Translations under genes and position numbers: made by a program
Notes under the pieces: model-generated
What the model was told of the DNA's origin: nothing
The model's database searches: none
What the model saw: the letters and a program-made list of their open reading frames with translations, nothing else
Source: a virus
Lineage: Duplodnaviria; Heunggongvirae; Uroviricota; Caudoviricetes
Direction: 5' to 3' (one strand)
Length of the DNA: 34,908 bases
IMG/VR virus record: IMGVR_UViG_3300037851_000345
Coordinates: 188,067-222,974 of that record
In this document: in pieces, positions 2,744 through 17,155 of the stretch
Position numbering within the stretch: the first letter of the stretch is position 1
Layout of the letters: every line of letters starts with the position of its first letter

Positions 2744-2821
2744 GAATAAGTAGATAGATAACGATAAGAGAATTAAGGGTGAATCGGTGACCAGATTTTT
2801 TGAAATTGACTAAGGACTCCC

Positions 2822-2837
2822 TAGGCCGCAAGGCCTA
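2822..2837 (+). other. GNRA-tetraloop hairpin
   Basis: TAGGCC-GCAA-GGCCTA followed by TTTT. Confidence 0.6.
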
Positions 2838-2842
2838 TTTTG

Positions 2843-2877
2843 AAAGGGTCAGGCTTTCGCCAGCCTGACCCTTTTTT
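2843..2877 (+). terminator. Rho-independent terminator of the AAA+ ATPase gene
   Basis: AAAGGGTCAGGCT / AGCCTGACCCTTT stem, 6-nt loop, followed by a T tract. Confidence 0.85.
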
Positions 2878-3382
2878 CTATCCCTACATTTTCAGCAATC
2901 GTTGAAAATATCTGTCCGAGTAAAAATTATATATGTCTCTTAATGAATCAATATTATACATATTCCTAAGAGTAGTTTTAACGGGCCCACTGGTGATTAA
3001 ATTAGGGCCAAATCAGGCCGATATTATAATTTAGTTAAGGGGAGTAATTACTTAGGATATTTAGGTAATTCGAATAGTTCAGTACTATCGGCATTGTTTG
3101 CAAGTTAAGTCGAAAAAGGGTAGAAATTTGGCCCTGGTGCAGCAGGATAACGCAAGATGCGGCACGTTTTATTTAATTCGTAAAGTGCGAAAGTTCGTCG
3201 GGTCGGACGATTGGGCTTGAATTTAAATTGAATCATAAGGGATTCGTTATATTTTTAACAATTGAAAATTTAGATAGACCCCTCTACAATATGTTTTAAG
3301 TAGATACATTGGCTCTTAATGTGTTTTAAGCGGAAACGTGCTATTCTGTTCGTCCTGTGCGAGTCTAAGCTTAGGCCAATAG

Positions 3383-3423
3383 TGATATCATTCTGATATC
3401 ATTTGATATTATTTGATATCATT
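3383..3423. repeat. Four tandem TGATATCATT-like units (palindromic core TGATATCA)
   Basis: Units start at 3383, 3394, 3404 (TGATATTATT) and 3414. Confidence 0.85.
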
Positions 3424-3466
3424 TAAATACTAACAACATTAGGTATTCTACAAGCCTGAAATGGAC

Positions 3467-3495
3467 TTGATAAATGGGGCAAGATATGATATAAT
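3467..3495 (+). promoter_or_regulatory. sigma70/sigmaA-type promoter with extended -10
   Basis: TTGATA(3467-3472)-N17-TATAAT(3490-3495), with TG at 3487-3488. Confidence 0.8.
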
Positions 3496-3597
3496 ATACT
3501 TGTGTAATAGAATGAGATTATTATGTCTACAAACATCTTAAAAAGCAATTTGTATTCTAAGTATGCGCAGAAGTAGTATGATGATAGTAACCTGAAA

Positions 3598-3723
3598 ATG
3601 GGGTTTGAGTTGACCTCTGAAGAGTTGGTTAGATTGAAGAAAAAATACGAACTTTGGATATGGCAGTATGATGAAAAGTTTTATGTCGAAATGGTTCTAC
3701 CTTTTATAAAATGGGTAAAATAG
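3598..3723 (+). CDS. Small paralog-family member lacking the Cys core (41 aa, not in ORF track)
   Basis: MGFELTSEELVRLKKKYELWIWQYDEKFYVEMVLPFIKWVK carries the KxxLW motif and an IKWVK end. Confidence 0.55.
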   Translation: MGFELTSEELVRLKKKYELWIWQYDEKFYVEMVLPFIKWVK

Positions 3724-3730
3724 GTGAAGT

Positions 3731-3982
3731 ATGCTTGAGAATGTAAGGGAATTGGAGCGTTTGAAGAATAAGGCGAAGGTGTGGCAGTCTTTACATCCTG
3801 AAATATGTGGTGTTTGTGTTCTCTGTCCTCATTTAGGTAACTCCGAGTGGTGTCGCACTCACTTTCGTTTGGTGATGGATAACGATGCTAACAAGGCGAA
3901 AATGGCAGTAGGGATATTATTTAAGATGGGTTCTAATAGTACGTTTGGTTACACGTGCATAGAATGGGTGCGCTATGTTTAA
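3731..3982 (+). CDS. Small Cys-rich paralog-family protein
   Basis: KAKVWQSLH...CVLC...CIEWVRYV; 8-bp overlap with the next gene. Confidence 0.8.
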   Translation: MLENVRELERLKNKAKVWQSLHPEICGVCVLCPHLGNSEWCRTHFRLVMDNDANKAKMAVGILFKMGSNSTFGYTCIEWVRYV

Positions 3983-4358
3983 ATTCAAGAGAAGGTTGAA
4001 GCGGGAAGAGCGTAGGCATTTGCGAAAGGAGCAATCTAAATTACAACAAGAGGCCTTGGAATTAAAACGTCTACAGGACAAGTTTGATTTGTGGTGCAAG
4101 TTGAATCCGAAGAAGAGTACCAACAGGTGCGAGACGAGTTGCCCCCATTATAGAAGGATTGTGTACAGAAGGATTGGGCCTGGCGTCAAAGAAAGGATCA
4201 ACAAGTGCGATGCGAGTCACCCTCATTACAGAAGGATTGTGCTTGGCGTCCACGATTGTCCTAGGCCGTTTTTGCAGTTGGATTTGATGAATGGGAAGAT
4301 TTCGTTTTGCAATTGGGGAATACACATTAATTGCGTGGAGTGGATACGAAATGCCTAA
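3975..4358 (+). CDS. Small Cys-rich paralog-family protein with internal duplication
   Basis: KFDLWCKLN...CVEWIRNA. The segment C..SCPHYRRIV / C.ASHPHYRRIV occurs twice. Confidence 0.8.
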   Translation: MFKFKRRLKREERRHLRKEQSKLQQEALELKRLQDKFDLWCKLNPKKSTNRCETSCPHYRRIVYRRIGPGVKERINKCDASHPHYRRIVLGVHDCPRPFLQLDLMNGKISFCNWGIHINCVEWIRNA

Positions 4359-4665
4359 AAAGAACAACGAGTATTGGTTAGGTAAGATTAAGTTGTGGTT
4401 CGCCCTGCGCGGCGGGATAGGGACATGGTTACAACATCACCGAGAGGAAGAACTTTGCGAGAACTGCCGCTACTACCAATCAACTAAAAAGGTAAGGAGA
4501 TTGGAGACTCTAGTGTTGGGTGCGAACGGGTATCGCAATTTTGAATTTGTACGGGAGTGTAAGCGAAAGCAGGAGTTCAGGGGAAAGTTGATGGTGAGTT
4601 CTAATTTAAAGACAATCGAATTTTGCGACTCCTATCCGTTTCACTACATCTGTGCAGAAATGTAG
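4351..4665 (+). CDS. Small Cys-rich paralog-family protein
   Basis: ATG at 4351 overlaps the upstream stop. KIKLWFALR...CENCRYY, with a degenerate end ICAEM. Confidence 0.7.
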   Translation: MPKKNNEYWLGKIKLWFALRGGIGTWLQHHREEELCENCRYYQSTKKVRRLETLVLGANGYRNFEFVRECKRKQEFRGKLMVSSNLKTIEFCDSYPFHYICAEM

Positions 4666-4835
4666 CATCCTGTAAGCAAGCAAAGCAATACTACGATGAT
4701 TTATTGGAGTATGGGTATTATTACTTGGCATTCCTTCGGGAAGGGAATTACATAAAATAAACAGAAAGGGGTGTGGGTGTAATGGAAATAATGACGGGTA
4801 GATGGCCTTGCAAAGAATGGGTGAAATATGTTTAG
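4623..4835 (+). pseudogene. Paralog copy interrupted by in-frame TAA at 4758
   Basis: LRLLSVSLHLCRNVASC...YIK*TERG...WPCKEWVKYV*. It ends in the family motif with the usual 8-bp overlap onto ATG 4828. Confidence 0.55.
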
Positions 4836-5070
4836 CCGAAAGAAAGAAAAGCAAAAGTGGATAAACAAGTGGTTCTTGTGGCAAAAATTACACCCCGAAT
4901 TTGATATCAAAGAACATGGTTGTGGACAACGTGGTTGTAAACATTATAGCCCGAAGGGGTCCCACACGTGTCCTACGGGTTGTTTGATGTTGGATAAGAC
5001 GCTAAAGAAACTATTAGACCCTTGGGCAATAGAAGAATGTCATTGCATCGAATGGATTAAAAATGTTTAG
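4828..5070 (+). CDS. Small Cys-rich paralog-family protein
   Basis: NKWFLWQKLH...CHCIEWIKNV. Confidence 0.8.
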   Translation: MFSRKKEKQKWINKWFLWQKLHPEFDIKEHGCGQRGCKHYSPKGSHTCPTGCLMLDKTLKKLLDPWAIEECHCIEWIKNV

Positions 5071-5320
5071 TGATTCTATTTTAAACAAACTCAGGCTCTA
5101 TTTTAAACTGCATCCTGATTTTTGGCAGTTGTGGCAAGATGGAAATTTTGACTGTTGTTACAATTGTAAACACATCAAGAGCAGAGGCCGAGGATTCGAT
5201 TATATCGGTTGTAAGAAAAAATATATGATGTTGGTAGATAGAGAATTAACAGAAATTTTCTTTGGAGCCCCTTGGGCATTTAAAAACTGTTGTTGTGTGG
5301 AATGGGTGAAGGATGTCTAA
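5063..5320 (+). CDS. Small Cys-rich paralog-family protein
   Basis: NKLRLYFKLH...CYNCKH...CCCVEWVKDV. Confidence 0.8.
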   Translation: MFSDSILNKLRLYFKLHPDFWQLWQDGNFDCCYNCKHIKSRGRGFDYIGCKKKYMMLVDRELTEIFFGAPWAFKNCCCVEWVKDV

Positions 5321-5614
5321 AGAAGAACTGAGAAAATACCACAACAAGTATTTGTTGTGGCATAAACTGCATCCTAAGCAGGGGTTTGAACGCTGTCGGT
5401 TTTGTAAACACAGTCGTTCATATTATCAGATAGGGAGAAAGGAATTAATGTCTGCTTATTATATTGCCGCCATCATTCTGAAGAAAGACCGCATTGTAGA
5501 GCAGATAAACAGGCATTGAGAGTTAAACCTGATTTAAGTAAAATATATGGGCGAAATGATTTTGAATATTACTACCGTGGTACGTGGTGTACAGAGTGGA
5601 TAAAAGATGTCTGA
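5313..5614 (+). pseudogene. Frameshifted paralog-family member
   Basis: The N-half (NKYLLWHKLH...CRFCKH) is in the frame of 5313. The C-half (...NVCLLYC...HC...WCTEWIKDV*) is in the frame open 5408-5614. Confidence 0.7.
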
Positions 5615-5867
5615 GCAAGAATTGAAGAAGTGGTACAATAAATGGAAATTGTGGTCTGTACTTAACCACGATTGGAACAACAATACTCCGTATTGTTTCC
5701 TTTGTCAACACGTTGACCCCACAGATGGAACGAATACAAATTGCCCTCAGAAAGTACTTACCTTAAATTGGGATGACGCAGGTGAAGAATGGGTGAAAGA
5801 GTGTAATGTGAATCATACTTGGGATGGGTCGGGATATATGTGCCTAGAATGGATAAAAGATGTTTAA
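5607..5867 (+). CDS. Small Cys-rich paralog-family protein
   Basis: NKWKLWSVLN...CFLCQH...CLEWIKDV. Confidence 0.8.
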   Translation: MSEQELKKWYNKWKLWSVLNHDWNNNTPYCFLCQHVDPTDGTNTNCPQKVLTLNWDDAGEEWVKECNVNHTWDGSGYMCLEWIKDV

Positions 5868-6120
5868 ACAAGAGTTGAAAAAGTGGGAGAACAAGTTGAG
5901 ATTGTACTTGACGCTTCATCACAATGATGTACAATTGATGAATTGTCAGGTCTGCCCGTTCGGTGGTTACAACAGTACAAATCATATCACCCATAACCGC
6001 GAGGGCTGTCCTAATCCTTATCTTTCTCTTACTGAAGATGATAGGATGTTGTTTACTACTAAGGGAAACCCTAGTTTAAGGAGGATTTCGTATTGCGTGG
6101 AGTGGATTAAATATGTTTAA
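5860..6120 (+). CDS. Small Cys-rich paralog-family protein
   Basis: NKLRLYLTLH...CQVCPF...CVEWIKYV. Confidence 0.8.
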   Translation: MFKQELKKWENKLRLYLTLHHNDVQLMNCQVCPFGGYNSTNHITHNREGCPNPYLSLTEDDRMLFTTKGNPSLRRISYCVEWIKYV

Positions 6121-6155
6121 CGGTGGTTTGAATCGTTAGAATCTAACAATATGAC

Positions 6156-6184
6156 TTGACAAATGCTCTTTTTCGTGGTATAAT
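6156..6184 (+). promoter_or_regulatory. sigma70/sigmaA-type early promoter with extended -10
   Basis: TTGACA(6156-6161)-N17-TATAAT(6179-6184), with TG at 6176-6177. Confidence 0.9.
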
Positions 6185-6202
6185 AGGGTATAAAGGTAAA
6201 AA

Positions 6203-6433
6203 ATGGACAGACCTGATTTTACGAACATGAATGGCCTAGTGGCAGGCCGAATCCCAAAGGGGGTTCAATGCCCGTTTCGGCAACAATGTGTTTTTTGCGA
6301 CAAGGCTGACGTTACCATGCCAAAGAGTCAGCGTTGCAAGCGACATACTCCCGAAGTGATGAAGAACAACTTTTCCTGTGCCATGGCCAGAATGTTTTCG
6401 ATAATTGAAAACACAAACAAGGGGTTAAAATGA
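6203..6433 (+). CDS. Cys-rich hypothetical phage protein
   Basis: 76 aa. G.IP.G..CPF...C..C...C...FSCA.AR pattern; first gene after the promoter. Confidence 0.7.
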   Translation: MDRPDFTNMNGLVAGRIPKGVQCPFRQQCVFCDKADVTMPKSQRCKRHTPEVMKNNFSCAMARMFSIIENTNKGLK

Positions 6434-8400: not shown

Positions 8401-8749
8401 TAATATTTCTACCAAAATTAAACTGTACTGTGCCTTGCACGGAAACAATGCCTTTGTGATGTGCAATGATATCACGAAGGAAAGCAATTGTAAAAAGTGT
8501 AGAGCCAAGAACGAAGGCATTTGCAACATCAGGTACAATAACAACAGACAAATTTTGTTCGAAAAGAAAACGGGTAAAATCATAACGATAAATGGGGATG
8601 GTCATCTAGAGAAGAACTGGGCTATTGGGAGGAGATTTATTATAACTGATGGAAAAATCTATAATAATTTTGCTGTGGATCGGAATTGGTTTTGTTTCGG
8701 CTTTCTAGAGAATAAAAATGAAAATAGAAAAACTCGTAAAAAAGTTTGA
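8387..8749 (+). CDS. Small Cys-rich paralog-family protein
   Basis: TKIKLYCALH...CKKC...C; ATG at 8387. Confidence 0.7.
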   Translation: MEKNNNISTKIKLYCALHGNNAFVMCNDITKESNCKKCRAKNEGICNIRYNNNRQILFEKKTGKIITINGDGHLEKNWAIGRRFIITDGKIYNNFAVDRNWFCFGFLENKNENRKTRKKV

Positions 8750-9020
8750 ACTGTATTTGAAATTAAGCGGGGGATTATCTAGGCAAGATGTCAAGGTACA
8801 AGATTGTACACAATGCCTTTTATATGGAGTATGTAAGCCCGAATCTGTTCGGAAGGTCTTCATCAAGATAGAGGAAGAAGATAAATCTATAAAAATTATT
8901 GGTTACGGTCTTGACTTTGGAATAAGGGACTATGTGGAAGATGAAAATGGAAAAGTTACCTTTAGGGTTTTAAAGGCATGCATAGAGTGGCTCGACCCTG
9001 ATCCTAGAATATTCAAATGA
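8718..9020 (+). CDS. Small Cys-rich paralog-family protein
   Basis: KKFELYLKLS...CTQC...CIEWLD. Confidence 0.75.
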   Translation: MKIEKLVKKFELYLKLSGGLSRQDVKVQDCTQCLLYGVCKPESVRKVFIKIEEEDKSIKIIGYGLDFGIRDYVEDENGKVTFRVLKACIEWLDPDPRIFK

Positions 9021-9241
9021 CTAAAAAACTACAGCGCAAGTTCGAATTGTGGCTAGCCCTGCACGGATATAAGGTTTTACCCGAAGAGATTTCTTGTGAT
9101 AAGATTTGTAAATTTGCTTCTACTTGCGAAAAGACAGAGAAAGAGAGAAAACTTTGGAACTATAAATATCAAAATAAAAATGAAGAAAATGAAATTGTAG
9201 ATATAAATACGTGTATCAGGTGGCTTGTTGATGATAAATAA
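9017..9241 (+). CDS. Small Cys-rich paralog-family protein
   Basis: RKFELWLALH...CDKICKF...CIRWLV. Confidence 0.75.
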   Translation: MTKKLQRKFELWLALHGYKVLPEEISCDKICKFASTCEKTEKERKLWNYKYQNKNEENEIVDINTCIRWLVDDK

Positions 9242-9422
9242 AACAACATTGGTACGCAAGGCTGATTTGTGGTTAAAACTACATGGGGTAAAAAAATTTC
9301 CTGAAGGAATGTGTGTCGTTTGTCCTCACAAAAAAAAATGTTGGGAGTCTCACAATGAAAAAGAATTTCTTTTTTACAAAGGAAAATGTATCCGTTGGCT
9401 TGACACCGAAGACAAAATGTGA
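9231..9422 (+). CDS. Small Cys-rich paralog-family protein
   Basis: RKADLWLKLH...CVVCPH...CIRWLD. Confidence 0.75.
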   Translation: MINKTTLVRKADLWLKLHGVKKFPEGMCVVCPHKKKCWESHNEKEFLFYKGKCIRWLDTEDKM

Positions 9423-9436: not shown

Positions 9437-9895
9437 ATGAATAAAATAGACAAAATTCACATTTCGATTATGTCGGCTGAAGTATTTAGACAGGTCAGCA
9501 GGGAATATCCTTATGACCACATCGTAATCAGGTACAAGACCCCTAGGGTCAACTACCAGCCAACTGTCCTTTCAAAATTCTGCCGTGGGCAGGTTGAATT
9601 GTTCGTCCACGACTACACGTCGAAGGAATCGATGGGGAACCCGCAGATTATTCTGTTTAGCAAGAACCACGCTAAGAAAATCCTGAGCCTACTTGAAAGG
9701 GAAAAGGATAATGTGTATCACATTATTTGCGTTTGCGACGCTGGTATCAGCCGCAGTTCGGCTACTGCTGCCGCAATCGGGAAAATCCTGTACAACGATG
9801 ATACGTTCGTATTCTACAATCCCCGTTACGTCCCCAATTTACATGTCTACAGCACCATTCTCAGGACGTATTTTGAGGGCAAAAATGGCGTTTAA
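9437..9895 (+). CDS. Protein-tyrosine/dual-specificity phosphatase-like protein (CX5R)
   Basis: Active-site loop IICVCDAGISRSSATA, upstream acid-loop candidate HD, C-terminal PN..VY..L. Confidence 0.8.
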   Translation: MNKIDKIHISIMSAEVFRQVSREYPYDHIVIRYKTPRVNYQPTVLSKFCRGQVELFVHDYTSKESMGNPQIILFSKNHAKKILSLLEREKDNVYHIICVCDAGISRSSATAAAIGKILYNDDTFVFYNPRYVPNLHVYSTILRTYFEGKNGV

Positions 9896-10264: not shown

Positions 10265-11248
10265 TTATTGTTTTAGTAAAGTTTGAAAATCGTTTTTGAA
10301 GGTTTTATAGCCAAACCTTTTTGTTATCTCTTTTGAAATAAATTGTGAGATGGGGGTATAATCTTCTTCATCTTTTGCTATAAGGGTAAGATTTTCAATC
10401 AAAGTTTTAATGTTGTTGGTTACGTAGCACATATTACTAGCCCATTCAATCCAACTAGGGTTAAAATCTTTTCCCGAATCATCATTTAGAACAATAGGGA
10501 TAGTTCCGCACATGATGGCCTGTTGAAGCATCATGCAAAAAGTTTCGGAGCCGTGATGCGGGAAAATGATATATTTGTATTGGTTCAGAACCTTTCCAAC
10601 TTCTGCTTGTGGTATTTTTTCTTTCTTTTCCAAATTCTGTGAAGCGGCCAAAGCAAATGCCATGCGATATTTAGATGTAGTGAATTTTTCTAACACTTCA
10701 CCATATATATCAATTTGGGTAGGAATATAATGTGCTAAATTTAAAAAATCGAGATGAACTTTCAAAGGATAAATCCCGCCTATTATGCAAAAAAGATTAG
10801 GTCTAGCCTTCCAAGGTATTTCATTATGAAATATTTTAGGGTCAGAGGGACAGAACTTTAGATTTTCTTTCTGTAATATTTTATTTTGACTAGCATCTAA
10901 GGTATAAATAATGTCTGTTAATCTGAGTAAGTCCATTAATAAAACGTGTTGATTATCAGGTTCATTGGGGGTGATGAAATATTTTTGAGAATGAGAAAAT
11001 AGAATTACTTTAGTATTTGGAAATGCTAATTTATAAAATAGAACGGGAGAAATAATTCTAGAAAAAATCTCGTTTATTACAATAATATCGGGATGTTCTT
11101 CCAATAAACGAGACATTGTTGAGCCTTCTTTTGTTTGGTCTTTATATTCAACCAATTCCACAGGTAGTTCCTGTATCCATTTTTTGATGGTGTCCCCAAC
11201 TGCTTCTATTCCTGAACCGACATTAAGATTAATTAAAAAAACTTTCAT
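10265..11248 (-). CDS. GT-B fold glycosyltransferase (GT4-like)
   Basis: N-terminal K(V)FLI...GSG.E, HPDIIVINE, ILFSH; C-terminal YKYIIFP...ETFCMMLQQAIMCGTIPIV is an E-x7-E-type motif with Gln at the second position. Confidence 0.75.
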   Translation of the reverse strand: MKVFLINLNVGSGIEAVGDTIKKWIQELPVELVEYKDQTKEGSTMSRLLEEHPDIIVINEIFSRIISPVLFYKLAFPNTKVILFSHSQKYFITPNEPDNQHVLLMDLLRLTDIIYTLDASQNKILQKENLKFCPSDPKIFHNEIPWKARPNLFCIIGGIYPLKVHLDFLNLAHYIPTQIDIYGEVLEKFTTSKYRMAFALAASQNLEKKEKIPQAEVGKVLNQYKYIIFPHHGSETFCMMLQQAIMCGTIPIVLNDDSGKDFNPSWIEWASNMCYVTNNIKTLIENLTLIAKDEEDYTPISQFISKEITKRFGYKTFKNDFQTLLKQ

Positions 11249-11282: not shown

Positions 11283-11798
11283 TTAAGTAACCGCTGGACA
11301 ATATACGTTATTAACTTCAGTATTATTATTTATATTTTCAAGAGCGTCATCACCAGGATAATGAGAACTGTTATTAATCCATTGAATTGTTATATTATGT
11401 TCTGCTAAATAAGAAGACTCTATTGCATTTTGATGAGTTGCATTATAAGTCGCATCATAACCTACATCGTGATTGTTATAATTTTGGTCATAGTGAGATG
11501 AAAGGTCGCCTGTATAATTTGTTACTTTATAAACAGAATTATGTAATGCTTTTTCTGCTGAGTCATTTGTGGCTTGATAAGTGGTATAATGAGTTGCATT
11601 GTAAGTCCCATTATGTCCTGAATCATCTGCTGAATAATGGGTTGCCCTAACAGTTGAATTATGACTTAGACAAGCCAAATTATCTTTTATCCAATCTACA
11701 TTTGTTTTAAACTCATTAATATCAACTGCTTCAACAATACCACCTGTAGCAATTGTTTCCGTCCAATCCTTACAACCACCTACTTTATTATAGCTCAT
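11283..11798 (-). CDS. His/Asn/Thr-rich tetrapeptide-repeat protein A (candidate radical SAM substrate)
   Basis: Leader-like W..TI..G..VEA...NEFK..VD, then C-x-x-H. All 10 His are in one 4-residue register. Confidence 0.8.
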   Translation of the reverse strand: MSYNKVGGCKDWTETIATGGIVEAVDINEFKTNVDWIKDNLACLSHNSTVRATHYSADDSGHNGTYNATHYTTYQATNDSAEKALHNSVYKVTNYTGDLSSHYDQNYNNHDVGYDATYNATHQNAIESSYLAEHNITIQWINNSSHYPGDDALENINNNTEVNNVYCPAVT

Positions 11799-11807
11799 AT
11801 TATTAAC

Positions 11808-12425
11808 CTAAGCGTCAAGTAAATCTACTGTTTGAACTGATACATTGTGAGAAGTTTGAACTGTCCCATTATCACCAGTATCAAGAGTACTATTGTTGCT
11901 ACTCTGATTAGTATTATCATGGGTTATAAAATAAGCGTCTTGGTGTCCATTATTATTTGAGGTATAATAAGTAATATTATGGGTTCCATGTAAGTCGGTA
12001 TCATGTGATGTATTATTGGTCGCATTATCTGTCGTATTGTGAGAATTTTGAACTGTGGCTTCATGGCTTGCTCTATTTGTTTCCAAATGACTTCCTAAAA
12101 CAGTTTGATTATCTATTTCTCGATAAGTAGTATAATGAGTTACCCGATATGTTATATCGTGAGTTGCTTCAACTGATGTTTCGTGAGTAGTCCGATGAGC
12201 AGAGCAAATATTTGCATCCCATGCTTGGTCTAAAGCGGTTTTTAATTCGGTATATTCAGTTGCCTCAATTTTCGTACCTATATTAATAGTTTTCACCCAT
12301 GAATAATTAGCAAGAGAAACATAACCTCTATCTGTATTAACATTTGCACGTATTTCGGCAATCCTTGCCGCTGTTGGTACATCTATTCCAGCAGTAACGG
12401 GCATTGTTGTCCAAGTGAAACCCAT
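11808..12425 (-). CDS. His/Asn/Thr-rich tetrapeptide-repeat protein B (candidate radical SAM substrate)
   Basis: Two copies of the leader-like motif, then C-x-x-H. 12 of 13 His are in one 4-residue register. AAGGAG RBS. Confidence 0.8.
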   Translation of the reverse strand: MGFTWTTMPVTAGIDVPTAARIAEIRANVNTDRGYVSLANYSWVKTINIGTKIEATEYTELKTALDQAWDANICSAHRTTHETSVEATHDITYRVTHYTTYREIDNQTVLGSHLETNRASHEATVQNSHNTTDNATNNTSHDTDLHGTHNITYYTSNNNGHQDAYFITHDNTNQSSNNSTLDTGDNGTVQTSHNVSVQTVDLLDA

Positions 12426-12443: not shown

Positions 12444-12450
12444 TATTTAT
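12444..12450 (-). promoter_or_regulatory. Candidate late-promoter motif ATAAATA
   Basis: One of six [A/C]TAAATA sites just upstream of minus-strand starts; overlaps a TAA stop. Confidence 0.35.
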
Positions 12451-12935
12451 TGATTTTGTTTATCAAAAGAAGCCAAATAATGTTTCGAAAGTTGCGTTGG
12501 TTGAAATCCTACGTGGCTTAATTCTTTGATAGTTTTTGATACCATTCTTAGATTTTGAAGTAATTCTACAGTAGTCAAGCGCAAATTCACAAAACGATTA
12601 AGTGTTTGTGTTAACAAACTGAAATCTTCATTTTTATGGATATTATTATTCCAATTATAGATTAGTGTGGAATAAGATTCTATAAATTTTGAACCTTCTT
12701 CAGAAATAACCTGCTCATTCAAAACCGCCAAAAGATATTTCAGACTATCCATAATCAAATTAATACCTGTCGGGGTTAAAGGCGATGGTACTTCATTTTT
12801 TTCACAAACAGAAGCGTCACGTTCAACCATTCCTATTATTTGTACAAATGACTCTTTTCTTTTCCCAAGAAGATAAGTGGCATCTGTATTCCCCAAATAA
12901 CACCTTAACTGTTTAACAAATTCATTCAATCCCAT
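12447..12935 (-). CDS. Helical hypothetical protein, radical SAM operon accessory
   Basis: 162 aa, Leu/Ile-rich amphipathic pattern; start overlaps the radical SAM stop. Confidence 0.65.
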   Translation of the reverse strand: MGLNEFVKQLRCYLGNTDATYLLGKRKESFVQIIGMVERDASVCEKNEVPSPLTPTGINLIMDSLKYLLAVLNEQVISEEGSKFIESYSTLIYNWNNNIHKNEDFSLLTQTLNRFVNLRLTTVELLQNLRMVSKTIKELSHVGFQPTQLSKHYLASFDKQNQ

Positions 12936-14266
12936 TTTATTTCCTCCATGACTCTCAAAACTTTGTTTATTTTATCTTTATTTACTGCACCCAAAATTAT
13001 ATCTAGCATCTCGCTTTCCTGAAAACCATCAAGGATGCCTTTTATTCTGTAAAATTCCATACGGCAAGCCGAAGGAATTGGTACAAACACATCGCCTGTA
13101 TTTTCAAATTGCGCCCCTAAACAACCATGGCTACACATTGAATTTATGACGCATTGTTCACACATTGGGAAATTATCCCCATCACTAGCATTGGTCGCTA
13201 TATGTAATTCGGGACTTATCGCTTCTATATCAACAATCTTATCATCTTTGGTTAGGAACTTAAACATCTTAAAATAATCATACATCAAACGATGACAAGG
13301 GAATGCAGTTAAATCCCCCATTCGTAAATAGATACCTGATTGTAATGAGCATCCTAACCCCCTGCCTGTCGTTGAAAATGGGCTTGATAGAGTATTAAAA
13401 GCCCAATGATTATGAAATAATTGATGAATAGGATTATCCATTTTTTTCAAACGTTCTCCTACCCAACTTGCTAATTTACGCATAAATTCATAAAGATGTT
13501 TTGATTGCTCTTCTGTCCATTCAGCATTTCGTACTTCAAGCAAATAAAGACTAGTGGGTGGGAATCCATATTCTTTAAATTTCTCTTGAAACCACATAAA
13601 ATTATCCCACCATTTTTCGATGTTGTTTGAGTAAATCATCGGATGGAAGCCTATTCTATATTTCTTATTAAACTTAAAAAGTTTATCGTAGAATACTTTA
13701 TCCCGTACTCTATCACTACGAAACGACCTGTTATCTTCCATAAAAATTCCATCAACAGATGCACTTATAATTAACGGGCAGTCTATCTTTTTTCCCCTTT
13801 CTATAAAATCTTCAACAAGTCTAGTTCTATTTTCGCTGAATAAGAAATTCATATTTGTTGGCACTACAATCTCTGTATAAATAGGTTGTCCCATTTCGGC
13901 TCTTTTGAGGGCTTCATCAACAATATCAAATCCTACATTTTGATTGAAGGCATCACCCCCGAATAATTCTAGTTTTGGCCGCATCTGGTTTTCCCACAAC
14001 CAATCCATTACAATATTTGCATTTTTAAATACCGTGGCAGGATTTTTCAATTCAGGCTTGGGATAATATTTATCACCAAATTTAACAACATAACAATAGG
14101 AACATTTTAATTCACAAGCGTCAGAAAGGTCAAATTCAAACCCCCGATAGTTGTTTAAGGCATATCCTTTATCTGTTTTAGCCTTCTTCCAATTTCTCCA
14201 AGAATTGAAAAAGGTGCGGTCTAAAAAGTTTTTTAAAAGTTCATTATTTTGCTCTTGAAAATTCAT
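12926..14266 (-). CDS. Radical SAM/SPASM-domain protein
   Basis: CELKCSYC, LFGGDA, PTN, ISASVDG; SPASM C-x17-CH...C-x2-C-x5-C-x3-C-x18-C. Confidence 0.92.
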   Translation of the reverse strand: MNFQEQNNELLKNFLDRTFFNSWRNWKKAKTDKGYALNNYRGFEFDLSDACELKCSYCYVVKFGDKYYPKPELKNPATVFKNANIVMDWLWENQMRPKLELFGGDAFNQNVGFDIVDEALKRAEMGQPIYTEIVVPTNMNFLFSENRTRLVEDFIERGKKIDCPLIISASVDGIFMEDNRSFRSDRVRDKVFYDKLFKFNKKYRIGFHPMIYSNNIEKWWDNFMWFQEKFKEYGFPPTSLYLLEVRNAEWTEEQSKHLYEFMRKLASWVGERLKKMDNPIHQLFHNHWAFNTLSSPFSTTGRGLGCSLQSGIYLRMGDLTAFPCHRLMYDYFKMFKFLTKDDKIVDIEAISPELHIATNASDGDNFPMCEQCVINSMCSHGCLGAQFENTGDVFVPIPSACRMEFYRIKGILDGFQESEMLDIILGAVNKDKINKVLRVMEEIKWD

Positions 14267-15626
14267 ATCTTGCTTCCTCTAAAATGATTTGAAATGCGCC
14301 GTTGCCAAACAATCTGAATAATGAAACAGGAGTGGTGAACAAACTTCCTGTTTGTAAAATATTTTCCATAGGACAACCTAAAGCATAGTTAATGAATATA
14401 GAGAACAAAGTGGCGAGGTTTTCATCTGCAAAATCTTCACTTATCTGTTTACTATATACTAATTCTTTGATAAGTGCTAAGGTTGTGGCCGTTTTATGTT
14501 TGGAAAAGGTTTGAAAACAAGACCAAGTATAAAATACCCTATCGACTTCCAATTGGTTATTGATATCTACGATATGCTTTTCCTTTACCAATTTTATTCT
14601 GTCTTTTTGCTGTAAATGGAAATCCCAATTCCCCTCATTTCTTAATTCTTTTTCATATTCAGGATGATTCATAAAAAGTGAACGATGACATAAATGAAGG
14701 TCTTGGAGTTCTCCTAATTGGTTTTGCGAGCGTCCTGCCGAACAGGAAAACATATCAGGCTTTGAAAAAAATTCCCTGCTGAAATCAAACAACCGTATCA
14801 ACCTGTAAGTATATGCATTGAATAAAGAGTTTTGGTGCTTTAAAAAGGGCCGTTGTCTTTGTTCATCAGACAAACGCTTTAAATGCCAACAGGTTTTTGC
14901 CCATATCTTGCCATCTTCTGAACTATATGTGCCAGGAACAGACATTGATGGAATCCCATTTAAGTCTAGATGAATATTTTTTTGCTTGTTAATTCCTTTT
15001 GCTAGGTCTATCCACTCATCAAAGAAATAAAAATAATAACGATATCTAGATTCCTCTCCATTAAGCCAATTTAGATTTTCAATTGACCAAGTTGATTTAA
15101 AATGAAACTTGACTTTTTTCTTCCCCAATTCTTCATTCTGAAGCAAACGTAAAACCTTTAAAAAATTACTTTTAATTGTTATTGTGGCACTACCTTGGCG
15201 GTTTTTATCTGTTACTTCTGGTGGGCCATCAATTGAGATTTGAACTTTGACTGAAATATCTCTATCTTTTGGCAAAGCCTGAATAAATTTAATTACACTT
15301 AAAGGATTGACCATCAAATTTGTTGAAAAACTAAATTCCCTTAATTTTGGGAAAGTATCTAATATTTTTGGAAGTATAGGGATTATCAAATCTAAAGTCA
15401 GAAGTGGTTCCGTACCCCAAAAAGCCAAACATTCAAGTTGGCCTCCATAAAGAGATTGTAATTCTTTGACATACTCCCCTGTCTGAATTTTCTTGATGAT
15501 ATCTTGGTGGAGTTTTTTCAAATGATCATTCTTCTCAATATAACAATAGGAACAATTCAAATTACAATAACCCGATGTAAAAATTTCTCCCGCTACTGCC
15601 TGTTGGCTTTTTAAAATCTTATCCAT
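14244..15626 (-). CDS. Radical SAM protein with reduced SPASM/Twitch-like domain
   Basis: CNLNCSYC, FWGTEPLL, STN, QISIDG; C-terminal CSAG...LCH...GCP lacks the C-x2-C-x5-C block. Confidence 0.88.
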   Translation of the reverse strand: MDKILKSQQAVAGEIFTSGYCNLNCSYCYIEKNDHLKKLHQDIIKKIQTGEYVKELQSLYGGQLECLAFWGTEPLLTLDLIIPILPKILDTFPKLREFSFSTNLMVNPLSVIKFIQALPKDRDISVKVQISIDGPPEVTDKNRQGSATITIKSNFLKVLRLLQNEELGKKKVKFHFKSTWSIENLNWLNGEESRYRYYFYFFDEWIDLAKGINKQKNIHLDLNGIPSMSVPGTYSSEDGKIWAKTCWHLKRLSDEQRQRPFLKHQNSLFNAYTYRLIRLFDFSREFFSKPDMFSCSAGRSQNQLGELQDLHLCHRSLFMNHPEYEKELRNEGNWDFHLQQKDRIKLVKEKHIVDINNQLEVDRVFYTWSCFQTFSKHKTATTLALIKELVYSKQISEDFADENLATLFSIFINYALGCPMENILQTGSLFTTPVSLFRLFGNGAFQIILEEARYEFSRAK

Positions 15627-15772: not shown

Positions 15773-17155
15773 CTACTTATCTTTACAATATTTGTCAATT
15801 TTTCCAAAAATACATTTGATAAAGTTTGAAATTCCAAACAGTTTGTCGTTCCAGTTTATATAGTAAAAACAGGAACATTTCTGTTCGGGTGGAATAGGAC
15901 AAGTATTACCTGTTTCTTTCCATTTTCCATTTTCACAGGTTGCTGTGATGATAACCGAACCATCATAACAAGTTTCAGTCTTGACTTCACCGATTTGACA
16001 TTCAGGCTTTACGTAGGGAACAGTCCATTTTCCCTTGTTTGCTAATGGCCCAATGTACTGTTCGTATGGAACTGCCATGGCCTCAAAGATTTTGAGTTGT
16101 TCTTCTTTGCAATCATCCCAAGGCTCATCATCAGGAAGATGTTCAATACCCATAATTGGCATTTCAATTCCGTTCCAAACTTTTGTAAGAGCTTCAGTTC
16201 CATGATAGGTACAGATACGAGTTACCATCTGTGTCCATTGGTCAACGCCTGGCCGGGGTGTAGCACCACCCATGCAGCCATCATCACTCACTTGCCAACG
16301 GATAGGATGAACAGCCCAATAATCCATAGCCTGTTCAAACACATTTACGCCTTGATTGTTTTCACAACCACAACAACCGTGGGTCGGACGAATAATACTC
16401 GTATCCCATCTATCTGCAGGGTCTTGTCTTAATGGATGCCACATAAACAAATTGTAGTCATAAATATAACTTGGAAGTTTCTTAAAAAGGTCATTACCAT
16501 TTGAGGGGATATCAGGACAAATTGCCCAAGCGTGCGGCCAAATTTTTTGCTGGTCCATTGTCTCCAAAATAAAATAACAAAAATCAAGACTTTCTGCCGT
16601 CATTTCATTACCCATTCCAAAAACAATTTTTAAACCCTTTTCCTTTGCTAGTTTGAACCACTCCAACATATATGCTAATGCATACTGACGATTTTCAATA
16701 TCATAAAGGTTCTTTATTCCCTGTACATTGTTACGCCAAGGGGAAAATTGTTGGTCATGACTATCATTGGTATATTGATAGAAAAGGTCTATCCAAAGAG
16801 AAATACCTGGGGCAGTATTTCCTGCTTTTTGTGAAGGATAATTCATAATACGAATCATCTGTTCTGCAATTTCCCAATATTTATTATTGCGTTTTGTTAA
16901 GTCAAACACACCCTCAGAAACTTGAACAAATGGGGTGAGGTTAGTTTTGTACCCATTAGAGTCAGACCAATTAGGCCAAACGCTCCATCCTAACCAACGG
17001 AACATATTAACACCACGATTTGCCATATCCATACAATAATTATACCATCGTTCTTCATTTAAAACCCAAGTTTGTTTCTCTTCATCCCACACACTCATTG
17101 TGGGGTCCATTAATGAAAACATTGAACTTGATATAAAATACATTTTATCTGTCAT
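15773..17155 (-). CDS. Probable clan GH-A-like TIM-barrel glycoside hydrolase with Cys-rich C-terminal module
   Basis: GVNMFRW, FDLTK.N..YW, LWIDLF, SPW.NNVQG, GMGNE (NE acid/base-like), C-terminal C..GE.K...C.DGS.I...C..GKW..T...CP. AGGAGG RBS. Confidence 0.55.
   Translation of the reverse strand: MTDKMYFISSSMFSLMDPTMSVWDEEKQTWVLNEERWYNYCMDMANRGVNMFRWLGWSVWPNWSDSNGYKTNLTPFVQVSEGVFDLTKRNNKYWEIAEQMIRIMNYPSQKAGNTAPGISLWIDLFYQYTNDSHDQQFSPWRNNVQGIKNLYDIENRQYALAYMLEWFKLAKEKGLKIVFGMGNEMTAESLDFCYFILETMDQQKIWPHAWAICPDIPSNGNDLFKKLPSYIYDYNLFMWHPLRQDPADRWDTSIIRPTHGCCGCENNQGVNVFEQAMDYWAVHPIRWQVSDDGCMGGATPRPGVDQWTQMVTRICTYHGTEALTKVWNGIEMPIMGIEHLPDDEPWDDCKEEQLKIFEAMAVPYEQYIGPLANKGKWTVPYVKPECQIGEVKTETCYDGSVIITATCENGKWKETGNTCPIPPEQKCSCFYYINWNDKLFGISNFIKCIFGKIDKYCKDK

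Follow-up and report, generated by a model that had tools for sequence, protein, structure and literature searches.

Why should two neighboring virus proteins confine their histidines to one fixed register of four residues, and what do the radical SAM enzymes encoded beside them have to do with it? The proteins, here called A and B, lie in a 34,908-nucleotide stretch of DNA (the window) from a virus of the class Caudoviricetes. A reading made from the letters alone (the sequence-only reading) had offered two alternatives: a leader-plus-core architecture for iterative radical SAM modification, or a metal-stacking beta-solenoid fiber with a helical anchor. Each of these appears partly right; they are compatible, and the evidence favors both together. 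In our best reading, A and B make up a phage fiber, probably beta-helical, that radical SAM enzymes mature; the system would be sister to the CXXX-repeat radical SAM target system but poor in Cys. We think this explanation as a whole, taking in A and B as substrates of a radical SAM cassette, the fiber fold, and the modification, somewhat likelier to be right than wrong.

A shared histidine register in two paralogous proteins

Both proteins are encoded on the minus strand, and each carries one or two N-terminal units, a junction cysteine, and a repeat region.

11283-11798, minus strand: protein A (171 aa), with one N-terminal unit, junction Cys43, and a repeat with 10/10 His in register
11694..11765, minus strand: N-terminal unit of A, residues 12-35, an exact match to the pattern given by the sequence-only reading
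11286..11672, minus strand: junction (C43-L-S-H46) and repeat region of A, residues 43-171
11808-12425, minus strand: protein B (205 aa), with two N-terminal units, junction Cys74, and an octad/tetrad repeat with 12/13 His in register
12228..12413, minus strand: N-terminal domain of B, made up of two strand-helix units (unit 1, ~residues 5-30; unit 2, residues 43-66)
11811..12206, minus strand: junction (C74-S-A-H77) and repeat region of B, residues 74-205

A recount bears out the register that had been reported for both proteins. All ten His of A (at 46, 54, 62, 70, 86, 102, 110, 122, 134, and 146) stand at 2 mod 4, and 12 of the 13 in B stand at 1 mod 4, H146 being the sole exception; 0 of 100,000 shuffles of either repeat region matched these counts. 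Across most of A and B the distance from one His to the next is 8 or 16 residues (spacings of 4, 8, 12, or 16 occur). As reported, Ser or Thr tends to stand directly before His, doing so for 6 of the 10 His of A and 9 of the 13 of B, and the reported C-x-x-H heads the repeat in both proteins (CLSH from residue 43 in A, CSAH from residue 74 in B). Where the register position lacks His it holds Tyr, Val, Asn, or Asp, as described, together with a few Ile, Glu, and Leu that the description had omitted. The register is conserved in orthologues from four other phage contigs, with 14/14, 10/10, and 10/12 His in register in the A orthologues of contigs L005, L006, and L003, and 11/12, 12/14, and 11/14 in the B orthologues of L006, L003, and L005, respectively. 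As judged from their sequences, A and B are paralogues within one family; A has three Cys and B has one.

An octad repeat behind a conserved junction

The family comprises at least 309 cluster representatives, and searches of Pfam, NCBIfam, and PHROGs recognized neither A, B, and 50 family members nor h162, the 162-aa helical protein encoded next to B. Across the family, the repeating unit spans eight residues (an octad) with a sub-period of four, [D/N/Y/C]-[S/T/A/G]-[T/S/G]-[H/Y/V/D/N], preceded by a conserved D-x-N-x-C-x-[ST]-H junction (in the consensus of 182 proteins, Asp at -4 in 54%, Asn at -2 in 61%, the Cys, His at +3 in 50%, and Asn at +4 in 43%). Self-identity at lags 4, 8, 12, and 16 is 0.155, 0.191, 0.163, and 0.214, compared with ~0.09 in shuffled sequences, and it is depleted to ~0.04 at lags 2, 6, 10, and 14, the residue alternation that would be expected of beta strands.

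Counting from the junction Cys, Asn and Asp are frequent at offset 0 and Thr and Ser at offset 2 across the family, 773/1102 His fall at offset 3, and 135/226 of the Cys that follow the junction hold the junction-Cys register. His is the commonest residue at its own register position, yet it is dispensable there. Its octad sub-position is common to Asp and Asn, and Val recurs at a different one; we therefore rejected a model in which His takes the place of the inward core Val of a gp5-type octad. We propose that the His register is a lineage-specific flavor of the repeat, possibly cation-binding, rather than a universal enzyme target.

A conserved cassette with two radical SAM enzymes

The remaining features that concern us lie to either side of A and B.

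12447..12935, minus strand: h162, a 162-aa all-helical partner protein of no known family
12926..14266, minus strand: rSAM2, a 446-aa radical SAM/SPASM enzyme
14244..15626, minus strand: rSAM1 (460 aa), a radical SAM paralogue of rSAM2 that has fewer C-terminal Cys
10265..11248, minus strand: glycosyltransferase, 327 aa, GT4-like, an optional sixth cassette gene
15773..17155, minus strand: a 460-aa protein with no family match, outside the core cassette, with homologues only in L003, L005, and L006

In the window, the cassette genes overlap or leave little space between them. Homology to rSAM2 (28-45% identity outside the window's own clade) yielded ~50 loci, in which a B-type and an A-type protein, rSAM1, rSAM2, and the 162-aa helical protein form a conserved cassette; rSAM genes also adjoin a family member in 7/8 independent look-ups. 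The suggested tie of A and B to radical SAM enzymes is thus strongly supported by conserved gene order, and the N-terminal motif is linked to rSAM genes rather than being a generic anchor that occurs independently of them. The h162 gene follows rSAM2 in nearly all loci, with a second copy after rSAM1 in L009, L018, and L019. Orthologues of the glycosyltransferase, which scores 25.1 bits against Pfam Glycos_transf_1 (just under the cut-off of 26.4), adjoin the cassette in ~13 of the ~50 loci, about a quarter. The protein at 15773..17155 is a neighbor in the closest clade only. A scan for promoters and terminators returned signals no better than those of shuffled sequences.

Neighbors of the cassette include collagen-like and gp10-like tail proteins, a T4-type portal, and a Bd2133-like fiber. 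Some cassette loci come from contigs that binning assigned to CPR bacteria or archaea and have TatC or POR genes close by, which weakens the case for a strictly viral, structural role. Among cultured phages in GenBank there was no DNA or protein match to the cassette, B, rSAM2, or P0152, a family member encoded between rSAM genes. Close to the L009 cassette there is an MFS transporter gene.

Both enzymes look functional, given that the CxxxCxxC motif and the seven-Cys SPASM set are invariant in 43/43 rSAM2 orthologues (C51/C55/C58, followed by C306, 324, 369, 372, 378, 382, and 401). The C-terminal set of rSAM2 includes the CxxCx5Cx3C of the SPASM pattern, and its TIGR04085 score falls below the cut-off (21 vs 27 bits). 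For rSAM1, 40-43 of 43 orthologues keep C21/C25/C28 and just three extra Cys (C295, C313, and C418). The best NCBIfam matches of rSAM2 are to PapB, ScfB-related, SCIFF, and QhpD maturases, all far below cut-off, and its best PDB match, a weak one, is CteB (5wgg). Residues 17-188 of rSAM1 match Pfam Radical_SAM/Fer4_12 and many NCBIfam peptide-maturase models, again all far below cut-offs. As the known maturase families are matched weakly and over the core only, any modification chemistry that we name is a guess. Two observations on the substrates nonetheless bear on it: Cys is absent from 5/72 of them, and a thioether therefore cannot be the sole reaction; and one pair of substrates (L018) is almost free of His while both rSAM enzymes are retained, for which reason we rate a His or Tyr cyclophane unlikely as the universal reaction.

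The N-terminal units are folded and are found elsewhere

The shared motif, beginning W-x-x-x-I, had been described as occurring once in A and twice in B. We find one exact match in each (residues 12-35 of A and 43-66 of B); the claimed second copy in B (~residues 5-30) is a loose fit, with its spacing off by one. A 50-sequence family alignment does support two units in B-type proteins, with W5 invariant and W43 near-invariant. In the AF2 model of B, the N-terminal domain has helices at 19-35 and 55-71 with a pLDDT of about 93, and, with an rmsd of ~3 A across 73-78 residues, it can be superposed on ESM Atlas domains that belong to viral and bacterial Ig/FN3/discoidin proteins. PDB sequence searches, both by the family profile and by a tandem-unit protein, yielded hits at chance level only. 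Large adhesin-like proteins carry the motif as well, either internally or at their C-terminal end (the latter in proteins of 376-960 aa), and secreted bacterial proteins lacking His and Cys repeats contain 3-4 copies in tandem.

The proposal of a leader plus a core with iterative His modification consequently loses its footing in the form in which it was made: the putative leader is a confidently folded strand-helix unit with a life elsewhere, the window's cassette holds no recognition domain, protease, or transporter, and the nearly His-free L018 pair keeps both enzymes. The same observations bear on a classical RiPP pathway, in which the N-terminal units would be a cleaved leader and the modified repeat would be freed as a bioactive peptide such as an antimicrobial or metallophore. 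Much about the locus recalls such a pathway, including a conserved N-terminus joined to a hypervariable core beside rSAM/SPASM maturase-like enzymes, a precursor gene that adjoins its maturase, a transporter in the case of L009, and a resemblance to the CXXX-repeat and His-Xaa-Ser radical SAM systems. However, no protease or transporter is present in the window's cassette or recurs among the neighbors of other loci, most of which have none; cores reach more than 300 residues in substrates of 100-390 aa; and the supposed leader stands at the C-terminal end of the adhesin-like proteins in some relatives, while others end in S74 fiber chaperones, in a tail-fiber gene setting. With only ~20 residues ahead of CxxxCxxC in rSAM1 and ~50 in rSAM2, neither enzyme has space for an N-terminal recognition domain, and no PqqD-like recognition element (RRE), fused or separate, was detected in rSAM1, rSAM2, or h162. 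The AF2 model of h162 (pLDDT 91) has six helices and is not a winged-helix fold; it had no PDB fold match and nothing informative in an Atlas search, and its clear AFDB matches were two uncharacterized clusters, probably its own family. A predicted complex of h162 with residues 1-84 of B, run without controls, scored 0.02, which counts neither for nor against an interaction. We consider the classical pathway unlikely.

Relatives point to a beta-helical fiber

The fold of the repeat is indicated by relatives and by periodicity. The repeats of P0152 exceed the Pfam cut-offs for DUF2345 (52.8 vs 30.7 bits) and Gp5_trimer_C (41.2 vs 30.9 bits) and match the beta-helix of PDB 9gtr (E 3.6e-4). Another family member, P0075, matches Pfam Peptidase_S74 above cut-off, and inspection by eye alone suggests much the same C-terminal stretch in its A-type partner (L066); further members are fused behind LamG or discoidin domains. 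From these relatives together with the octad, we infer that A and B probably fold as a trimeric, beta-helical fiber, although A and B themselves matched no Pfam model, Gp5_trimer_C and DUF2345 included. Of the earlier suggestion of a beta-solenoid fiber with a helical anchor, the fiber thus gains real support from these relatives; any metal stacking would involve a His that shares its octad sub-position with Asp and Asn, not with the core Val.

A fiber of this kind might need no enzyme at all. A and B could fold by themselves, with the His/Asp/Asn ladder binding cations, while the rSAM enzymes act on another protein, a sugar, or a nucleotide. Phage fibers and spikes with Fe or Zn buried on His are known (PMC6116203), and the beta-helix and S74 signals in relatives would suit such a fiber. 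Against this stand the very tight synteny of exactly two substrates and two enzymes over ~50 divergent loci, the resemblance of both enzymes to peptide or protein maturases (one with a full SPASM domain), and the absence of the HxH motif from A and B, and we judge an unmodified metal-binding fiber distinctly improbable.

It is very unlikely, in our estimation, that A and B are instead disordered, heavily glycosylated decoration proteins, in which the glycosyltransferase would use the D/N-x-S/T ladder as a sequon array and the His register would be a by-product of the repeat. The sequons are certainly numerous (10 N-x-S/T in A and 12 in B), the family-wide preferences at offsets 0 and 2 conform to them, and the GT4-like gene adjoins A; but a glycosyltransferase accompanies only about one cassette in four, the sequon count varies from 5 to 12 among close orthologues, and the two rSAM enzymes are left unexplained. 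Glycosylation is compatible with our best explanation as an add-on.

Least probable is an alpha-helical rod or coiled coil, since the AF2 monomer of B, which renders residues 75-192 as a single long helix, does so at a pLDDT of just 55-80, the T, S, N, G, H, and Y composition is unfavorable by established helix propensities, the period is exactly 4 and 8 with lag-2 depletion as in beta strands instead of the 3.5-3.67 residues of coiled coils, and a relative matches beta-helix profiles. A fold search of the B model against viral models found nothing, the long predicted helix making that model unsuitable.

A proposed fiber matured by a radical SAM pair

In the explanation that we prefer, a radical-SAM-matured fiber, A and B would be the two substrate proteins of a cassette conserved in uncultivated phages, each built from one (A) or two (B) strand-helix units, a D-x-N-x-C-x-[S/T]-H junction, and a hypervariable octad repeat. 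The repeat would form a trimeric, gp5/VgrG-like beta-helical fiber or spike attached to the tail. Even positions of the octad would alternate in the order small residue, V/Y, small residue, H/D/N, and odd positions would bear an outward D/N-x-S/T ladder; the strict His register would then follow from placement of His at one fixed octad sub-position, common to Asp and Asn. Covalent modifications would be installed ahead of folding or in its course by the paralogous radical SAM pair, aided by the helical protein; the likeliest kind may be a thioether from a register Cys (as in the junction C-x3-N/D), with other cross-links or epimerization as further candidates. Where a glycosyltransferase is present, it might decorate the outward Ser, Thr, and Asn.

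The most specific form of this claim, that a dedicated radical SAM pair cross-links or otherwise rewrites a trimeric beta-helical phage tail fiber or spike, is one that we put forward tentatively and would not bet on. We know of no precedent for radical SAM enzymes modifying a structural protein of a virion; our literature search found no description of rSAM-modified phage fibers or of the CXXX system. If true, RiPP-type chemistry would be part of virion assembly, adding an enzyme-installed covalent step to that of the phage tail fiber, and radical SAM peptide-maturase chemistry would reach beyond small secreted peptides to viral fiber proteins of 100-390 residues. The His/Asp/Asn ladder would be a tunable cation-binding stripe, and new protein families would be defined by the substrate, its N-terminal unit, and h162, three in all. 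With five or six genes, the compact cassette lends itself to heterologous co-expression.

Comparison with known systems

Among structural proteins, a close analogy is with the triple-stranded beta-helix of VgrG and the T4 gp5 C-terminus, which shares the octad periodicity and alternating residues, and for which P0152 alone passes the profile cut-offs. A and B differ in being rich in His, Tyr, Asn, and Thr rather than Val and Gly, in having no OB-fold or lysozyme domains, and in their radical SAM companions, which known beta-helices do not need. With tail fibers and spikes that carry an S74 chaperone the family shares the S74 match of P0075, the similar end of its A-type partner, and the genomic setting, although A and B of the window have no S74 domain. 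HxH iron or zinc sites occur in T4 gp37 and gp12, P2 gpV, phi92 gp138, and R-pyocin fibers (PMC6116203); the recurrence of His in a regular register, in what would likewise be a trimeric phage fiber, is similar, whereas H-x-H is lacking in A and B and Asp and Asn share the His position.

On the enzyme side, rSAM2 has the full SPASM Cys set in common with PapB, CteB, and QhpD, and its best profile matches are to thioether formers. PapB acts on a C-x3-D motif, which the C-x3-N/D of the A/B junction resembles. The His-Xaa-Ser system (HxsB/HxsC) likewise pairs two radical SAM enzymes with a small protein and a His-rich repeat target, but its repeat has a period of 3 rather than 4, and the HxsB model gives 33 bits against a cut-off of 370. 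In both comparisons the scores are an order of magnitude under the cut-offs, and the A/B-type substrates are larger (100-390 aa) and include a folded domain.

The CXXX-repeat system (target TIGR04114, maturase TIGR04115, associated protein TIGR04116) is defined bioinformatically, and we know of no experimental characterization of it. Like the A/B cassette, it places a target with a four-residue repeat beside a radical SAM maturase and a small accessory protein, and the Cys of the A/B family fall at the same register position (offset 0). It differs in having Cys at every fourth residue, where the A/B family mostly has Asp, Asn, or Tyr and keeps Cys mainly at the junction; the A/B cassette also has two enzymes, two substrate paralogues, and a different accessory protein, and with the TIGR04115 model rSAM1 reaches 30 bits, where the cut-off is 350. 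Neither TIGR04114 nor TIGR04116 finds a match in the window's genome. On another viral contig, L041, a TIGR04114 protein scoring over cut-off is encoded upstream of a homologous rSAM pair, and the Atlas clusters nearest to A, which we treat as a lead only, are viral "Cys-rich repeat modification target" clusters (score 0.83). If our reading is correct, the likely biological setting of the CXXX-repeat radical SAM system would be phage or surface fibers.

Gene order at the distal end of the tail-gene row

The IMG/VR record spans 222,974 bp with direct terminal repeats, so it belongs to a jumbo phage; the window forms its final 35 kb. The minus strand holds nearly all genes, from ~34.9 kb down to 10.3 kb, in which a long row of tail genes encodes collagen-like fibres, a tail-collar-like protein, a gp10_C baseplate-type protein and a G8-domain protein. 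Seven genes, tightly packed or overlapping, close the distal end of this row:

15773-17155, minus strand: 460-aa protein, family unknown
14244-15626, minus strand: rSAM1, a radical SAM enzyme
12926-14266, minus strand: rSAM2, its paired radical SAM enzyme
12447-12935, minus strand: h162, a 162-aa helical protein
11808-12425, minus strand: protein B (205 aa)
11283-11798, minus strand: protein A (171 aa)
10265-11248, minus strand: glycosyltransferase, GT4-like

On the plus strand, three small tandem Cys-containing ORFs of 100, 74 and 65 aa (8718-9422) share a K-F-E-L-W-L-K-L-H-G-like start, and similar ORFs occur in L005, a locus from another contig. The adjacent 152-aa ORF (9437-9895, plus strand) has, on reading of the sequence only, the C-x5-R-S signature typical of Cys-based protein phosphatases (C-D-A-G-I-S-R-S); a similar 147-aa ORF adjoins the L005 cassette, and one of the same size stands at the same place in L006. 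Positions 2750-6400 hold few ORFs of at least 90 aa, and GC skew there is strongly positive (0.23-0.32). The window yielded no tRNA genes.

A histidine register shared by a large protein family

The sequence-only reading had placed the histidines of A and B in a strict 4-residue register, and this observation is confirmed: every one of the 10 His in A falls at 2 mod 4, and in B 12 of the 13 fall at 1 mod 4, counts reached by none of 100,000 shuffles of each repeat region. As also noted there, C-x-x-H opens both repeats, and Ser or Thr mostly precedes His. The N-terminal pattern reported once in A and twice in B holds for A; in B only one copy matches exactly, and unit 1, despite its loose fit, is supported by the family alignment. 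A and B are paralogous (BLASTP 3e-10), and orthologues in four further contigs (L003, L004, L005 and L006) keep the register, with, for example, 14/14 His in the L005 A protein.

Searching 1.84 billion proteins with a profile built from A, B and two orthologues gave 309 cluster representatives (E<=1e-3); none of 50 family members had a meaningful match in Pfam or NCBIfam. B-type members have an M-x-F-x-W start and two strand-helix units, with W5 and the junction Cys, C74, invariant in their alignment, and A-type members have one unit. Across 182 proteins, the junction between these units and the repeat reads D at -4 (54%), N at -2 (61%), Cys, S/R, T/S/A, His at +3 (50%) and N at +4 (43%). Counted from the junction Cys, the repeat holds D/N/Y (Cys 7%) at offset 0, S/T/A/G at offset 1, T/S/G at offset 2 and H/Y/V/D/N at offset 3; 773 of 1102 family His occupy offset 3, and 135 of the 226 later Cys occupy offset 0. 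Self-identity is maximal at lags 4, 8, 12 and 16 (0.155, 0.191, 0.163 and 0.214, versus ~0.09 when shuffled) and halved at lags 2, 6, 10 and 14, so that the repeat unit is 8 or 16 residues long, is subdivided into tetrads and alternates strictly, like beta strands. The eighth residue after His is His in 26% of cases and Val in 7%, Val recurs 8 and 16 residues after Val (15% and 21%), the residue 4 after Val is mostly D, H or N, and the octad sub-positions differ for His and Val; from these recurrence patterns, Asp and Asn share the sub-position of His. Histidine is optional: among the 72 members linked to a cassette, 6 have one His or none.

The idea that the N-terminal unit is a dedicated leader fared less well. 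The unit is not private to the cassette: secreted bacterial multidomain proteins lacking any His or Cys repeat end in three to four tandem copies of it. In these proteins (P0113, P0128, P0134, P0148, P0149 and P0151) the strand-helix repeat is ~36 residues long, reads roughly T-D-x-x-x-x-x-G-x-x-I-K-A-x-H-x-x-E-L-R-x-A-x-N-x-x-R and is covered by no Pfam model. In the ESM Atlas, viral and bacterial Ig/FN3/discoidin proteins contain domains on which the modelled two-unit domain of B (pLDDT ~93) can be superposed.

Conservation of the cassette and its enzymes

We fetched 54 loci by rSAM2 homology alone from viral contigs and GTDB metagenome-assembled genomes (MAGs), with rSAM2 identities of 28-45% beyond the window's own clade. 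Nearly all loci that are long enough and clean in code 11 contain a B-type and an A-type protein, rSAM1, rSAM2 and h162; a glycosyltransferase is present in about a quarter, and a second h162 follows rSAM1 in three. In the reverse look-up by exact sequence, 7 of 8 family members adjoin rSAM1 (plus rSAM2 and h162, contig permitting), the sole exception being a 5.9-kb contig. The cassette was found in no cultured phage. The contigs of some loci were binned to CPR bacteria or archaea, several long ones to Parcubacteria or archaea, and among 91 cassette-neighbour proteins four match TatC and two pyruvate:ferredoxin oxidoreductase; given these bins and neighbours, cellular genomes or prophages within them may harbour the cassette too.

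In four loci (L009, L018, L019 and L064), either rSAM1 is followed directly by a second h162 paralogue or the substrate pairs are doubled, with four family members and two h162 in L064; these duplications hint that a separate helper is possible for each enzyme. In L030, L033-L035, L040, L041 and L062, both viral and MAG, the rSAM1 and rSAM2 homologues, when read in code 11, fall apart into numerous short ORFs, which suggests stop-codon reassignment or decay.

The CxxxCxxC motif and all seven SPASM cysteines are kept in 43/43 rSAM2 orthologues, and rSAM1, a paralogue of rSAM2, keeps CxxxCxxC and three further Cys. The best profile matches (PapB, SCIFF/CteB and QhpD maturases for rSAM2; PapB, YhhB, GrrM and HxsB, over the core only, for rSAM1) are to peptide or protein maturase families, at scores far below the family cut-offs. 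The confident model of h162 (pLDDT 91) has six helices and matches no family and no PDB fold. In L003 (2558-5008) the rSAM1 orthologue reaches 816 aa through an intein that contains a LAGLIDADG-type insert (PF14890 on record) and immediately precedes the third Cys of CxxxCxxC, the would-be +1 residue; the 803-aa L048 orthologue may carry the same insert, and L006 has a 56-aa N-terminal rSAM1 piece ~760 bp upstream of the main ORF.

Evidence for a possible trimeric fibre

Several relatives of A and B point to a trimeric fibre. P0152, a 390-aa B-type member in L018 flanked by rSAM1-h162 and A-type-rSAM2-h162, has D-x-T-V-D-[A/S]-G-D octads that score above the cut-offs of two Pfam models, DUF2345 (VgrG C-terminus) and Gp5_trimer_C, and also match the beta-helix in the gp5/VgrG structure 9gtr (E 3.6e-4). 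P0075 has a match to Peptidase_S74, an intramolecular chaperone characteristic of phage fibres and spikes that are trimeric; the A-type protein paired with it in L066 has a C-terminal stretch that is, by eye only, closely similar, and rSAM1 follows both. Other members form the C-terminal end of 376-960-aa proteins with LamG or discoidin-type domains, and neighbours in other loci include collagen-like fibres, a T4-type portal and a homologue of the Bdellovibrio Bd2133 fibre. A and B themselves matched no beta-helix profile, and the AF2 monomer of B models the repeat as a single long helix (pLDDT 55-80). We give this helix little weight because a trimer of intertwined chains is beyond a monomer, because the residue composition is unfavourable to helices and because the periodicity suits strands; as a prediction, it still counts against a beta-helix.

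Proposed mechanism

With the register, junction, family, synteny and intact enzyme motifs established, we propose that rSAM1 and rSAM2 act on A and B as their substrates, that h162 would serve these enzymes as adaptor or chaperone, and that the repeat would build a trimeric beta-helical fibre. At a minimum, the SPASM enzyme would convert the register Cys to a thioether. This cannot be the sole reaction, since 5 of 72 substrates lack Cys; further cross-links or epimerisation could fall on the universal D/N, S/T or small residues. Since both enzymes persist in relatives with almost no His, histidine is unlikely to be a universal target; by analogy with metals buried in phage fibres, a His/Asp/Asn stripe could plausibly bind cations. 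Where present, the glycosyltransferase might decorate an outward D/N-x-S/T ladder. The two readings first offered, a leader plus core for iterative radical SAM modification and a metal-stacking beta-solenoid fibre with a helical anchor, are each partly right, and probably both apply. We regard the cassette as a widespread, undescribed variant of radical SAM-dependent protein maturation in a phage fibre context, its chemistry and fold being predicted.

Comparison with known systems

Phage fibres contain buried metals, for which HxH is the defining motif (PMC6116203), but this motif has no counterpart in A or B. The Atlas clusters nearest A are viral 'Cys-rich repeat modification target' clusters with PF27846 (score 0.83; a lead only). 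Neither NCBIfam CXXX-repeat model, TIGR04114 or TIGR04116, matches in the window's genome; in the viral contig L041, a true CXXX-repeat protein above the TIGR04114 cut-off lies 3.5 kb upstream of a homologous radical SAM pair. The Cys of the A/B family keeps the CXXX register, and from this and the L041 pairing the His-register proteins look like a Cys-poor sister of the CXXX system, itself bioinformatically defined and uncharacterised. PapB acts on a C-x3-D motif, which the C-x3-N/D of the family's junction resembles.
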